This document shows positions 47,764-50,530 of a stretch of DNA of 64,000 nt, piece by piece. This DNA comes from Escherichia phage vB_EcoM_PHB05. A program made the position numbers and the translations under genes. The notes under the pieces were generated by a model. The model did not search any database. It was not told where the DNA came from and worked only from the letters and a program-made list of their open reading frames with translations. Where the stretch lies: sequence record NC_052652.1. The stretch is one strand, 5' to 3'. Each line of letters starts with the position of its first letter. Within the stretch, counting starts at the first letter, position 1.

Positions 47764-47792
47764 TTGACTTTAGATCTATCTGTATGTAGAGT
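47764..47792 (+). promoter_or_regulatory. sigma70-like promoter
   Basis: TTGACT-N17-TAGAGT upstream of 47832 CDS. Confidence 0.55.
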
Positions 47793-47831
47793 AGAGAACA
47801 TAAAGTCCTAACTCAACTAAGGAGATAAAGA

Positions 47832-48725
47832 ATGAAAGTTAGTATTCTGCATGGTGTTGACTGTTATGTTACTGATGTAGACGTTAAAGTGTTTACATTC
47901 TCTGGTGGAGAACAACATGTTCAATTAGATACGAATCTATCAGGTTTCAATCATGCTACAGACAGAATCTTACTCACTTTAGAAGTAAGATCTGCTAAAG
48001 ACTTGATGACTTTGGTTATGACTAAGAATGCATTGGACAATATGCTATATCATAAACCATATTGTGTTGATTTACTCATGTTGTATGTGCCGTATGCACG
48101 ACAAGACAGAGTGTGTGAGCCTGGGGAAGCATTCGGAGTTAAAGCATTTGCTTCTATAATTAATTCATTAAATTTCTCACGTGTTATCGTTGCTGATCCG
48201 CATAGTGATGTTACTCCAGCAGTGTTTGACAGACTCTGTGTAATACCTCAAGAAGAGATTGCTTACGAAACTTTAAAGTGGAAGTTACGTATGGAGAATT
48301 TTGCTCTTGTTAGCCCTGATGGTGGTGCTCTTAAGAAAATATTTAAATTATCTAAGAAAATGTCTTTAGATGTGTTCTGTGCAGAGAAGGTTAGAGATAC
48401 CGCAACAGGTGCTATTGTTCGTACAGACATTTCTGTACAGGATTTCAATAAGCGTAACCTGATGATCGTAGATGATATCTGTGATGGTGGTAGAACTTTT
48501 ATTGAATTGGCTAAAGTGCTACGTGCTCGTAACGCAGGTAAGATTGAGCTATATGTTACGCACGGTATCTTTTCTAAAGGTCTTAAAGAGTTAAGTGAGC
48601 ACTTTGACTGCATTCATTCTCTTAATGTGTGGGAAGATAACATCCAAGAAGATTCTGGTGTTCTTGTTAAGAATCAGTCAGATTTGCAACAACAAATTGT
48701 ATCTCCATACGTGTGGAATTTTTAA
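47832..48725 (+). CDS. ribose-phosphate pyrophosphokinase (PRPP synthetase)-family enzyme
   Basis: VPYARQDR and MIVDDICDGGRT (PRPP-binding loop) motifs; 297 aa. Confidence 0.85.
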   Translation: MKVSILHGVDCYVTDVDVKVFTFSGGEQHVQLDTNLSGFNHATDRILLTLEVRSAKDLMTLVMTKNALDNMLYHKPYCVDLLMLYVPYARQDRVCEPGEAFGVKAFASIINSLNFSRVIVADPHSDVTPAVFDRLCVIPQEEIAYETLKWKLRMENFALVSPDGGALKKIFKLSKKMSLDVFCAEKVRDTATGAIVRTDISVQDFNKRNLMIVDDICDGGRTFIELAKVLRARNAGKIELYVTHGIFSKGLKELSEHFDCIHSLNVWEDNIQEDSGVLVKNQSDLQQQIVSPYVWNF

Positions 48726-48735
48726 ATAATAAGTG

Positions 48736-48764
48736 TTGACAATAGGGAGTATGCTTAGTAAGAT
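48736..48764 (+). promoter_or_regulatory. sigma70-like promoter
   Basis: TTGACA-N17-TAAGAT upstream of 48797 CDS. Confidence 0.55.
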
Positions 48765-48796
48765 ACTCCCACATTAACAAACAAGGAGACATAACT

Positions 48797-50530
48797 ATGA
48801 ATATTTTTGCACCTTTTGCTACTGATTGGTACAAACCTGGTCACAAGCAGATGTACAACCAAAATACAAAACTTATTTTCTCTAATTTAACTCCTCGTAA
48901 TGATAAAAACTTTGCGCACTATGCAGATCGTGAAGCACGTGGTGTGATTGTTTTAGGTATTCGTCGAGCAGTCACTGATGCTCTTGTAACTATGTGGGAT
49001 AGCTTCTTTAAAATGTCTCGTAGTGCAGCAGTAAATAAATTTTATCGTATGTCTAAAAATGCATTAGGTGCTTCTGCTCCTTCTGCTGAATGTTGGGGAG
49101 AATTGCACGATTTAGGTTATCTTCCGCTGGAAGTTCGATCTCTGCCAGAGGGTGTTTTGTGTCCTATTGGTGTTCCTGTGTTTACTGTGCATAATACTTT
49201 AGAAAAATTCTTTTGGTTAACTAACTATGTGGAAACACTATTGTCAGATGAAACTTGGAAGACAATGACTAATGCCACAGCAGCTTTTCAGTATAAGCGT
49301 ATCGCTATGGCATATGCGATGGCAACGTGTGATAATATTGATCACGTTAACTTCCAGTGTCATGACTTTAGCCTACGTGGTTTAAGTAATATCGAAGATG
49401 GTTATAAGAGTGGTATCGCTCACTTGGCATCGTTCACAGGAACAGATAATATTCTGGCTATTGAAACTGTGCATGACTATTATGGTATTGATTATGATCA
49501 GTTTGTTGCAGGTTCGATTCCGGCAACAGAACATTCAGTAGCAACGACTAACATTGGAGCTATTGTTGAAGATCTGAAGAAACATTTCCCACATCTTAAA
49601 GATGATGTAGATGGGCTTCGTTATGTAGCAGAAAAAGAGTTTCTTCGTCGTTATATCGAAGAAATTGTTCCAGAAGGTTTTTGTTCATATGTAGCAGACT
49701 CTTATGACTATTGGGCTGTATTGACTCGCATTCTGGTAGAATTGAAAGATTCCATTATGTCACGAAATGGTCGTCTTGTTATTCGTCCAGATTCAGGAGA
49801 TCCGGTTAAAGTTGTTGCAGGATACAATGTTGAATCTTTTGATAACTATGAAGACCTCTTAAATAATGGTATTGCGACAGCCACTGAAGTAGTTCATTTG
49901 GCTGATGTTAATAAGTATTACAATGTTCTTCAGGATTGCAGTATTGCTGACTGTATTGATGAAACTTATGAGATTCCTTATTGTGAAGCAGTAGGTTCTA
50001 TTCAAATCCTTTGGGAAGTGTTTGGTGGTACTATCAACCGAAAAGGCTACAAGGTTCTTGATCAGCATATCGGTATGATTTATGGTGATTCTATTACTGT
50101 TGAACGAGAACACGAGATCTTACGCCGACTGAAGAAGAAAGGTTTTGCAGCTTCCAATATTGTATTTGGTGTTGGTAGTTATACTTATCAGTTCAATACA
50201 CGAGATACTTTTGGTTTTGCTGTTAAAGCAACAGGTAGTATCATCGGTGAACACGAAATTTTGGTAAGTAAGGAGCCTAAAACTGATCCTGGTAAACGCT
50301 CTGCAAAAGGTTTTATTAAGGTTGTTAAGGATACCAATGGTAATCTTTCTCTTGTAGATAATCTTTCTTTTAAAGATATCCAGGATGAAGACAATGAGTT
50401 ACAAGTTATCTTCAAGAATGGTAAGGTTATTACACCACAAGTAGAAGGTCGTGATGAAACATTCACTGATATCCGCAACCGTGTTGATGTAGAGGTTCTT
50501 CGTACTATGGGAACCATCCAGGTTGACTAA
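48797..50530 (+). CDS. nicotinamide phosphoribosyltransferase (NAMPT/NadV)-family enzyme
   Basis: N-terminal ATDWYKPGH and central IRPDSGDP motifs typical of NAMPT family; 577 aa (longer than typical). Confidence 0.85.
   Translation: MNIFAPFATDWYKPGHKQMYNQNTKLIFSNLTPRNDKNFAHYADREARGVIVLGIRRAVTDALVTMWDSFFKMSRSAAVNKFYRMSKNALGASAPSAECWGELHDLGYLPLEVRSLPEGVLCPIGVPVFTVHNTLEKFFWLTNYVETLLSDETWKTMTNATAAFQYKRIAMAYAMATCDNIDHVNFQCHDFSLRGLSNIEDGYKSGIAHLASFTGTDNILAIETVHDYYGIDYDQFVAGSIPATEHSVATTNIGAIVEDLKKHFPHLKDDVDGLRYVAEKEFLRRYIEEIVPEGFCSYVADSYDYWAVLTRILVELKDSIMSRNGRLVIRPDSGDPVKVVAGYNVESFDNYEDLLNNGIATATEVVHLADVNKYYNVLQDCSIADCIDETYEIPYCEAVGSIQILWEVFGGTINRKGYKVLDQHIGMIYGDSITVEREHEILRRLKKKGFAASNIVFGVGSYTYQFNTRDTFGFAVKATGSIIGEHEILVSKEPKTDPGKRSAKGFIKVVKDTNGNLSLVDNLSFKDIQDEDNELQVIFKNGKVITPQVEGRDETFTDIRNRVDVEVLRTMGTIQVD

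Follow-up and report, generated by a model that had tools for sequence, protein, structure and literature searches.

Two adjacent genes in a phi92-like phage (Justusliebigvirus) very probably form a NARP1 (NAD+ reconstitution pathway 1) module; we put the probability of this reading at roughly 90%. The window (the whole stretch of DNA analyzed, 64 kb out of a genome of about 148 kb) carries, on the + strand, a predicted ADPR-pyrophosphate synthetase gene of the Prs family (adps) followed by a predicted nicotinamide ADPR-transferase gene of the NAMPT family (namat). The original prediction proposed that such a Prs-like and NAMPT-like pair may rebuild NAD+ from ADP-ribose (ADPR) and nicotinamide. 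The independent tests made here agree with it, and orthologues of the pair are already catalogued in the paper that reported the discovery of NARP1 (Osterman et al., bioRxiv 10.1101/2024.02.11.579819). Table S1 of that paper lists the phi92, Bas62 and PaulScherrer proteins as Adps homologues (“Namat within 10 genes: Yes”), Table S2 lists the phi92 and Bas62 proteins as Namat (“Adps-associated”), and the NARP1 operon is described as recurring in four BASEL phages (10.1101/2024.02.11.579819).

The pathway has been demonstrated experimentally in relatives. The enzyme activities (making ADPR-PP from ADPR and ATP, then NAD+ from nicotinamide and ADPR-PP, the latter taken in preference to PRPP) were shown for the SPbetaL1, DyoEdafos and Paenibacillus homologues, and the anti-defence phenotype for Bas63, FADO and an engineered SBSphiJ. 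Deleting the pair from Bas63 led to sensitivity to SIR2-HerA and lowered NAD+. The window proteins are 35–39% identical to validated NARP1 proteins (those of Bas63 and FADO, validated in vivo, and of SPbetaL1, validated in vitro).

The gene pair and its upstream signals

Calling ORFs in the 64,000-nt window places two large + strand genes where they had been predicted (47832–48725, 297 aa, and 48797–50530, 577 aa): they are neighbours, with a 71 bp spacer and no intervening gene. The interval originally outlined runs from base 1 of a promoter-like site (47764) to the final stop-codon base of the second gene (50530). Its features are as follows.

47764–47792, + strand: promoter-like site upstream of adps, TTGACT-17-TAGAGT, 9/12 (consensus match only)
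47820–47824, + strand: ribosome-binding site (AGGAG) at a distance of 7 nt from the adps start codon, ATG (from the sequence; the same motif is annotated in phi92)
47832–48725, + strand: adps, predicted ADPR-pyrophosphate synthetase, Prs family, 297 aa (ORF with profile and identity comparisons)
48736–48764, + strand: promoter-like site in the adps-namat spacer, TTGACA-17-TAAGAT, 10/12 (consensus scan)
48745–48770, + strand: perfect 8-bp inverted repeat GGGAGTAT...ATACTCCC, putative RNA hairpin, overlapping the spacer promoter-like site
48784–48788, + strand: ribosome-binding site (AGGAG) at a distance of 8 nt from the namat start codon, ATG (from the sequence; the phi92 annotation agrees)
48797–50530, + strand: namat, predicted nicotinamide ADPR-transferase, NAMPT family, 577 aa (ORF with PDB and profile matches)

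The original prediction put each gene behind its own near-consensus sigma70 promoter. A promoter-like site does precede each gene, but “near-consensus” was an overstatement: both sites are only moderate consensus matches, and each -10 hexamer agrees at 4/6 positions. Promoter-like hits in the region number 23, compared with 15.3 ± 3.8 in shuffles. An exact TTGAC-N18-TAAGAT arrangement occurs in three copies in the window (0.12 expected), two of which flank the second gene. The site before adps sits within a divergent intergenic region of 370 bp. The spacer site is identical in phi92 and Bas62, genomes too alike for this conservation to be informative. The 71-nt spacer folds with a minimum free energy of -15 kcal/mol (z-score -2.82), and no U-run follows the inverted repeat at 48745–48770. 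Because no terminator-like site was found between the two genes, co-transcription of adps and namat is possible.

The locus has close and more distant counterparts. DNA identity between the window region and 54 phi92-like phages is 97.7–99.5%. The genes of phi92 (gp107/gp108) and of Bas62 (JohannJBalmer; 0248/0249) are essentially those of the window, with few substitutions and protein identities of 99%: the exact values against Bas62 are 99.7% for Adps (protein 0248) and 99.1% for Namat (protein 0249), and these phages do not differ from the window in gene order or in the spacer with its promoter-like site and hairpin. In Bas63 (JohannRWettstein, a Felixounavirus), genes 79–80 are likewise adps then namat on one strand, but the spacer is 45 bp and the pair lies among nrd and rII genes, whereas the window pair is set between a divergent junction and a tRNA cluster. 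In the Bacillus phage SPbetaL1 the two genes abut without a spacer. A single profile, phrog_12872, represents a fused Adps-Namat protein; the window Adps matches its positions 9–222 and the window Namat positions 221–536, which gives Rosetta-stone support for a functional link between the two.

Family placement of the two enzymes

The original family calls (Prs-like and NAMPT-like) stand far above chance, and the motifs quoted for them are all present: YARQDR (residue 88) and MIVDDICDGGRT (residue 211) in the first protein and IRPDSGDP (residue 329) in the second. Adps matches PHROG 619, “ribose-phosphate pyrophosphokinase”, with an E-value of 3.8e-91 and 306 bits; on the same profile the validated Adps proteins of Bas63 and SPbetaL1 score 333 and 248 bits and E. 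coli Prs 193. The fold, YARQDR and a DDxxDxG(G/R)T loop are common to E. coli Prs and the window protein, with the ribose-5-phosphate loop reading DDICDGGRT in the latter versus DDMIDTGGT in the former. Identity is 35–39% to Adps proteins (36% to that of Bas63, 35% to that of SPbetaL1) versus 28% to E. coli Prs. K186 of the window protein (AEKVRD) aligns with K162 of SPbetaL1 Adps (GHKQRN), the catalytic lysine whose mutation to alanine abolished activity.

Profile comparison of Adps against Prs, a check suggested with the original prediction, places the window protein with the validated Adps proteins. It reaches none of the NCBIfam Prs equivalog cut-offs, falling about 200–480 bits short, as the validated SPbetaL1 Adps does. 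With PRK01259 (cut-off 297) it scores 98 bits, SPbetaL1 Adps 74 and E. coli Prs 533; with PRK00934 (cut-off 296) it scores 97.5 bits, and the remaining Prs equivalog and subfamily models give 49–78 bits against cut-offs of 322–536. Only the broad subfamily model TIGR01251 is passed, narrowly (118 vs 113 bits; the E. coli Prs control reaches 423). Judged by these sequence comparisons, the window Adps appears to group with the Adps proteins of phages within the Prs family, apart from cellular Prs.

Namat matches PHROG 448, “nicotinamide phosphoribosyl transferase” (E 1.4e-188), and Pfam NAPRTase (E 5.5e-38), and it shares HDF..RG, GTD, EHS, RPDSG and the fold with human and Xanthomonas NAMPT. 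The ranking of PDB matches favours Namat over NAMPT: the top match is the crystallised SPbetaL1 Namat (9W5X/9W5W) at E 1e-118, compared with E 1e-50 for human NAMPT. The protein is 39% identical to both Bas63 and SPbetaL1 Namat, and local identity to NadV of the Vibrio phage KVP40 is 33–34% over two aligned blocks. The catalytic core of SPbetaL1 Namat (D13, Y15, F189, R192, D215, the catalytic His, R306 and D308) has its equivalents at D10, Y12, F191, R194, D217, H246, R330 and D332; the catalytic lysine of Adps, the NAM- and ribose-phosphate-binding residues of Namat and the SCH motif are all common to SPbetaL1 and the window. Two models were rejected as discriminators, PRK09198 and phrog_448, both of which score Namat and true Nampt alike. 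The PRK09198 equivalog (cut-off 405) is passed by the window protein with 463 bits, by validated Namat with 594 and by KVP40 Nampt with 508.

The adenine clamp and the extra length of Namat

Published determinants of Namat specificity are the selectivity-clamp loop (SCL) and the SCH helix. In the 10-protein panel compared here, the helix motif goes with linkage to Adps. The window Namat carries the adenine-clamp signature GSYTYQFNTRD at residues 460–470, in which Y462 and F466 are the aromatic residues and T, Q and N stand at Phi1, Phi2 and Phi3; the Bas63 motif is GSYTYQYMTRD. A GS-plus-aromatic motif occurs at this place in seven Adps-linked homologues, compared with GG(G/A)LLQ in three Nmnat-linked Nampts (KVP40, AS-gz and Synechococcus phage BUCT-ZZ01). 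A neighbor-joining tree of the 10 proteins likewise groups the window Namat with the Adps-linked homologues, away from these three. The clamp helix of KVP40 NadV reads GGGLLQQLDRD, without aromatic residues, and these are missing from Xanthomonas Nampt too; human Nampt likewise does not have the clamp signature. The second-best structural relative, PDB 9KE8/9KEO, has GAQTYQRNTRD in the clamp region, without the two aromatic residues; a literature search on these entries found no relevant paper. Aeromonas phage 65.2 was dropped as a comparator for NARP2, the Nmnat-linked pathway, since a Prs-like gene lies six genes upstream and makes its locus NARP1-like.

According to the published rule the third SCL position is Arg, Lys or Tyr, and where Lys or Tyr stands there, the fourth residue stacks on adenine. 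The window SCL reads TPR-N-D-K-N-F-A-H-Y, with K37 third, as the rule has it, and a non-aromatic residue, N38, fourth, followed by F39; in Bas63 the third residue is also Lys but the fourth is Trp. In SPbetaL1 the loop is shorter and the stacking residue is Arg40. The window SCL is 4–6 residues longer than both characterised SCL types and unlike either.

The NAMPT-like protein was correctly described as 80–100 aa longer than is typical: it has 577 aa, compared with 491 for SPbetaL1 Namat, 497 for KVP40 NadV and about 491 for human NAMPT. The suggestion that this length reflects altered specificity finds no support. The extra residues are lineage-specific insertions (at about 252–283 and 343–398) plus a C-terminal extension, and one or both insertions are common to Bas63 Namat, itself long at 593 aa, in which IRPDSGDP is likewise followed by inserted residues. 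Length is not a specificity determinant, because the biochemically characterised SPbetaL1 Namat has neither insertion (nor the C-terminal extension). It was therefore set aside as a specificity feature: the post-IRPDSGDP insertion shared with Bas63 is missing from the Namats of SPbetaL1, Staphylococcus phage K and mycobacteriophages.

The insertions, the C-terminal extension, the long SCL with Asn in fourth position and the spacer elements raise the question of whether the phi92-clade enzymes are a functionally distinct sub-variant of NARP1. This seems unlikely. Were it so, the insertions, extension and loop might shift the kinetics or the donor specificity, or offer a further surface for interactions, while the spacer, through its promoter-like site and hairpin, might let Namat be expressed independently of Adps.

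More improbable is conventional salvage, in which a true PRPP synthetase would supply an NMN-making nicotinamide phosphoribosyltransferase and host NadR or PncC would take NMN to NAD+. GenBank and other public annotations name the genes in this way, both proteins match Prs and NAMPT family models, and the passes of PRK09198 and, barely, of TIGR01251 point in the same direction. However, PRK09198 does not discriminate, the Prs equivalogs are missed by the same broad interval as in validated Adps, and the aromatic clamp motif specific to Namat is present. Work on the relatives argues the same way: Bas63 still overcame the defence in a host without pncC and nadR, and SPbetaL1 Adps yielded no PRPP. 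SPbetaL1 Namat does retain NMN synthesis from PRPP in vitro, so the window Namat could, by analogy, still make some NMN.

Neighbouring genes and the predicted pathway

A NARP1 core pair may come with an accessory enzyme: about 15% of NARP1 loci have a Macro-domain gene and some have a RyR-domain glycosidase. An extended module of this kind (NARP1-AP, with the Macro-domain ADPR-1''-phosphate phosphatase Adpp, or a RyDEP-coupled form) would counter a wider range of defences, and small function-unknown genes do flank the window pair (47054–47461 on the - strand, 50602–50823 and 51003–51269 on the + strand). It is nevertheless very doubtful here, as there is no gene between adps and namat, and the flanking ORFs (46554–47461, - strand; 50602–51269, + strand) have no Pfam match to a Macro or RyR domain and fall only in PHROGs of function unknown. 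The sole weak Pfam match among them is a Cys4 zinc-finger motif in a 73-aa ORF.

Another phage pathway that restores NAD+ through a NAMPT-family enzyme is NARP2, which in KVP40 consists of the Nampt NadV, which prefers PRPP and requires an Nmnat partner, and the Nmnat NatV. The original prediction stated that no NMN adenylyltransferase gene lies nearby, and this holds at Pfam sensitivity: among 32 window ORFs scanned, including all function-unknown ORFs of at least 140 aa, none matches CTP_transf_like, Nudix or Macro, and nucleotidyltransferases are represented by one RmlA-type sugar enzyme alone. The kinship with KVP40 NadV and the limited share of the genome that the window covers leave room for an Nmnat gene elsewhere, with the Prs-like enzyme boosting PRPP supply, but such an arrangement is exceedingly improbable given that the phi92 RefSeq annotation lists no NMNAT or Nudix gene at positions 1–66,000, that the phi92-type protein is labelled Adps-associated in Table S2, that, according to the NARP1 authors, the two pathways did not occur together in any phage, and that the window Namat sides with the Adps-linked proteins in motif and tree.

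The NARP1 reading suggests the following course of events, by analogy with the characterised homologues. A host defence of the SIR2, TIR or SEFIR type would cleave NAD+ into ADP-ribose and nicotinamide. Adps, using ATP, would pyrophosphorylate the terminal ribose of ADP-ribose to give ADPR-PP, and Namat would then exchange the pyrophosphate of ADPR-PP for nicotinamide, giving NAD+ directly. Such a route would require no NMN intermediate, no NMN adenylyltransferase and no host salvage enzyme. From the behaviour of the relatives we infer a preference for ADPR-PP and NAD+-forming activities for the phi92-clade enzymes, and an anti-defence phenotype would likewise be expected of their pair.

NARP1 is an important recent discovery, in that it shows phages rebuilding NAD+ from the debris of NAD+-depleting defences. 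The locus described here adds nothing new to it: the gene pair is already known in phi92-like phages, since the tables of the discovery paper list the same pair. Where it is of practical use is in naming the genes. In public records, as in NCBIfam and PHROGs, the products are still called “ribose-phosphate pyrophosphokinase” and “nicotinamide/nicotinate phosphoribosyltransferase”, names that, if the pair is the NARP1 module it very probably is, imply the wrong chemistry.

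A probable NARP1 pair and its phage relatives

NARP1 rebuilds NAD+ in two steps: the Prs-like enzyme Adps turns ADP-ribose into pyrophosphorylated ADP-ribose (ADPR-PP), and the Nampt-like enzyme Namat converts ADPR-PP and nicotinamide to NAD+ (Osterman et al., bioRxiv 10.1101/2024.02.11.579819). The pathway enables phage escape from SIR2-HerA, Thoeris I, DSR1, DSR2 and SEFIR (Osterman et al.). Two adjacent window genes very probably encode it (about 0.9). What this analysis shows directly is how the genes are built, which family and clade their products belong to, that the motifs are conserved and that no alternative partner turned up in the ORFs scanned; chemistry and phenotype are projected from homologues 35-39% identical. 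From the ORF listing, the genes are:

47832-48725, + strand: adps, 297 aa
48797-50530, + strand: namat, 577 aa

An AGGAG ribosome-binding site can be read ahead of both. The original prediction had described two large + strand genes, and its three quoted motifs were all found (residues 88 and 211 of the first protein, 329 of the second). A rightward transcription block begins with the pair, where cumulative GC skew turns. A 370-bp divergent intergenic region lies 5′ of the pair, and 3′ of it, just past namat, lies a cluster of 16 tRNA genes (51277-54158, + strand; three with a CAT anticodon). The Bas62 tRNA cluster holds a homing endonuclease that the window lacks. The phi92 RefSeq record annotates a 151-nt “hypothetical tRNA” within the namat coding sequence; ARAGORN found no tRNA inside the window namat.

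Across the 3.3-kb region, 54 phage records match at 97.7-99.5% identity, almost all of them from phi92-like Escherichia phages (genus Justusliebigvirus), including phi92, whose coordinates run parallel to those of the window from position 1, and the BASEL phage Bas62 (JohannJBalmer). Four records titled “Campylobacter phage” (host field Campylobacter jejuni) are 95-99% identical to the phi92-like region, which looks like host mis-assignment or contamination in public data. The adps product is 99.7% identical to Bas62 0248 and the namat product 99.1% identical to Bas62 0249. Among Adps homologues marked “Namat within 10 genes: Yes”, Table S1 lists phi92 FR775895_00103, Bas62 MZ501084_00232 and PaulScherrer, and Table S2 gives FR775895_00104 and MZ501084_00233 as “Adps-associated” Namats (Osterman et al.). 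The NARP1 assignment of the phi92-like pair is already known, the discoverers having catalogued the gene family. Their paper reportedly appeared later in Nature, in 2024.

Family membership of Adps and Namat

The main rival is a conventional Prs-plus-NAMPT pair, the reading of GenBank and annotation libraries, which we regard as very improbable. The adps product matches PHROG 619, “ribose-phosphate pyrophosphokinase” (E 3.8e-91), gives weak Pfam matches to Pribosyltran and Pribosyl_synth, and matches the N-terminal Prs domain of Pfam below threshold. The namat product matches Pfam NAPRTase (E 5.5e-38) and PHROG 448 (E 1.4e-188). Comparison with validated enzymes favours the Adps reading. First, window Adps shares 36% of its residues with Bas63 Adps, an enzyme validated in vivo, and 35% with SPbetaL1 Adps, validated in vitro; its identity with E. 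coli Prs is 28%. Second, in the HMM comparison that the original prediction had proposed, it scores like validated Adps and unlike E. coli Prs: 306 bits on phrog_619, against 333 and 248 for the two validated proteins and 193 for E. coli Prs. It falls short of all NCBIfam Prs equivalog models and of the PRK01259 subfamily model (98 bits, cut-off 297), and narrowly passes the broad TIGR01251 model (118, cut-off 113). SPbetaL1 Adps behaves similarly on the latter two models (74 and 106 bits), where E. coli Prs reaches 533 and 423. Third, window K186 aligns with SPbetaL1 Adps K162, mutation of which abolishes activity (Osterman et al.).

A search against solved structures gave a concordant answer for Namat: the top matches are 9W5X and 9W5W, crystal structures of SPbetaL1 Namat (E 1e-118), followed by human NAMPT (E 1e-50). 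A structural paper defined a Namat-specific adenine “selectivity clamp” (PMC12774641), and residues 460-470 of window Namat, GSYTYQFNTRD, fit that definition exactly. Of ten phage-locus proteins compared, all seven Adps-linked ones carry a GS-plus-aromatic motif at the clamp site, versus GG(G/A)LLQ in three Nampts linked to Nmnat (KVP40, Aeromonas AS-gz and Synechococcus BUCT-ZZ01); window Namat groups with the Adps-linked proteins in the neighbour-joining tree of these ten. The clamp aromatic residues are also missing from Xanthomonas Nampt. The window clamp loop (SCL) agrees only in part with the published pattern: its third position is Lys, as in Bas63, but Asn takes the fourth place instead of an aromatic residue, and Phe follows. 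Compared with the characterised proteins, the loop has 4-6 extra residues. Window Namat keeps the catalytic histidine and every residue that binds nicotinamide or ribose phosphate. Furthermore, the two functions are independently tied because the window proteins match two parts of a fused Adps-Namat profile, phrog_12872 (547 positions): Adps covers the first 222 and Namat the rest. Shigella phage Ag3 FJ373894_00125 is a Table S1 entry noted with this fused family (Osterman et al.); the family may stem from a true fusion of the genes, or from sequencing or annotation errors in some phages.

Window Namat is indeed longer than typical (577 aa, versus 491 for SPbetaL1 Namat and 497 for KVP40 NadV), owing to insertions at about residues 252-283 and 343-398, plus a short extension at the C-terminus. 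The suggestion that this length reflects altered specificity is not supported: Bas63 Namat (593 aa) carries insertions at both places, shorter at the first, and they are missing from mycobacteriophage, SPbetaL1 and Staphylococcus phage K Namats. Length is a lineage trait, because long and short forms are both validated and specificity determinants map elsewhere.

Absent partners and neighbouring genes

Other pathway types were weighed by their partner genes. A Pfam scan of 32 window ORFs, which took in the small genes beside the pair and all ORFs of unknown function from 140 aa upwards, found no NMN adenylyltransferase (as originally predicted), Nudix or Macro domain, and no RyR-domain gene among the flanking genes, which belong to PHROGs of unknown function. 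NARP2, the Nampt-Nmnat route, requires Nmnat (Osterman et al.), and the NARP1-AP operon carries a Macro-domain ADPR-1′′-phosphate phosphatase; both are argued against by the lack of these genes in the scanned ORFs, as is a RyDEP-coupled locus by the lack of a flanking RyR-domain gene. With no Macro-domain phosphatase gene found, the phage would, by published logic, be unprotected against aRES-type defence. In the proposed NARP1 route, a host SIR2-, TIR- or SEFIR-type defence would cut NAD+, Adps would convert the resulting ADP-ribose and ATP to ADPR-PP, and Namat would combine this with nicotinamide to restore NAD+.

Several other window genes deserve mention. Four dTDP-rhamnose synthesis genes (RmlA-D types) lie at 24522-27786 (- strand), the RmlA-type gene (Pfam NTP_transferase, E 5.5e-77) being the sole nucleotidyltransferase found in the window. 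A 270-aa Sir2-family protein at 12317-13129 (- strand; Pfam SIR2 E 1.3e-22, PHROG 2162) has the E. coli CobB deacylase 1S5P as its closest PDB match and carries GAGxSxxSGIxxFR and HG motifs, without obvious zinc-binding cysteine pairs. Judged by sequence, the genome therefore combines an NAD+-consuming enzyme with an NAD+-rebuilding pathway; nicotinamide is a product of sirtuin reactions. Near the module, an RNA-repair-like set at 43455-44940 (- strand), comprising a T4 Rnl1-type RNA ligase (Pfam RNA_lig_T4_1, E 5.7e-14) and a calcineurin-like phosphoesterase, may counter tRNA-cleaving defences; Bas62 has a polynucleotide kinase directly past it. Between nrdB (28852-29937) and nrdA (30300-32561), the window has a 362-bp gap (29938-30299) where a 657-bp HNH endonuclease gene (gp074) separates the phi92 ribonucleotide reductase genes. 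This difference accounts for the coordinate offset of about 340 bp and resembles presence/absence polymorphism for a homing endonuclease.

Promoter-like sites and the adps-namat spacer

Promoter-like matches in the region modestly exceed shuffled expectation. Sites of note are:

47764, + strand: promoter-like site, 9/12; good -35 hexamer, -10 hexamer 4/6
48736-48764, + strand: promoter-like site in the adps-namat spacer, 10/12; good -35 hexamer, -10 hexamer 4/6
27593-27621 (- strand), 48736-48764 (+ strand) and 50523-50551 (+ strand): exact TTGAC-N18-TAAGAT copies
50943-50972, + strand: spacer-18 variant of this motif

The description of 47764 and 48736 as near-consensus sigma70 promoters is apt for the -35 hexamers and too generous for the -10 hexamers. 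Three exact TTGAC-N18-TAAGAT copies against 0.12 expected from shuffling, two of them flanking namat, make a phage promoter family plausible and suggest a putative phage-specific class; + strand copies lie directly 5′ of consecutive genes (namat, a 73-aa ORF and an 88-aa ORF). Overlapping the spacer site is a perfect 8-bp inverted repeat, GGGAGTAT/ATACTCCC (48745-48770, + strand), identical in phi92 and Bas62 and followed by no U-run. The 71-nt spacer has a predicted RNA fold of -15 kcal/mol (z-score -2.8). The repeat might serve as operator, RNA processing site or stabiliser. The scan found no terminator-like site between adps and namat, and co-transcription is possible, with or without an internal promoter.

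The remaining value of the finding lies in annotation correction and in a few small details: which clamp-loop residue stacks, what the insertions do, and the promoter-like site and hairpin of the spacer. The original prediction of phage NAD+ reconstitution by a Prs-like and NAMPT-like pair, made from the sequence alone, matches what the pathway's discoverers had recorded: orthologues from phi92 and Bas62 stand in their tables, and the membership tests agree.
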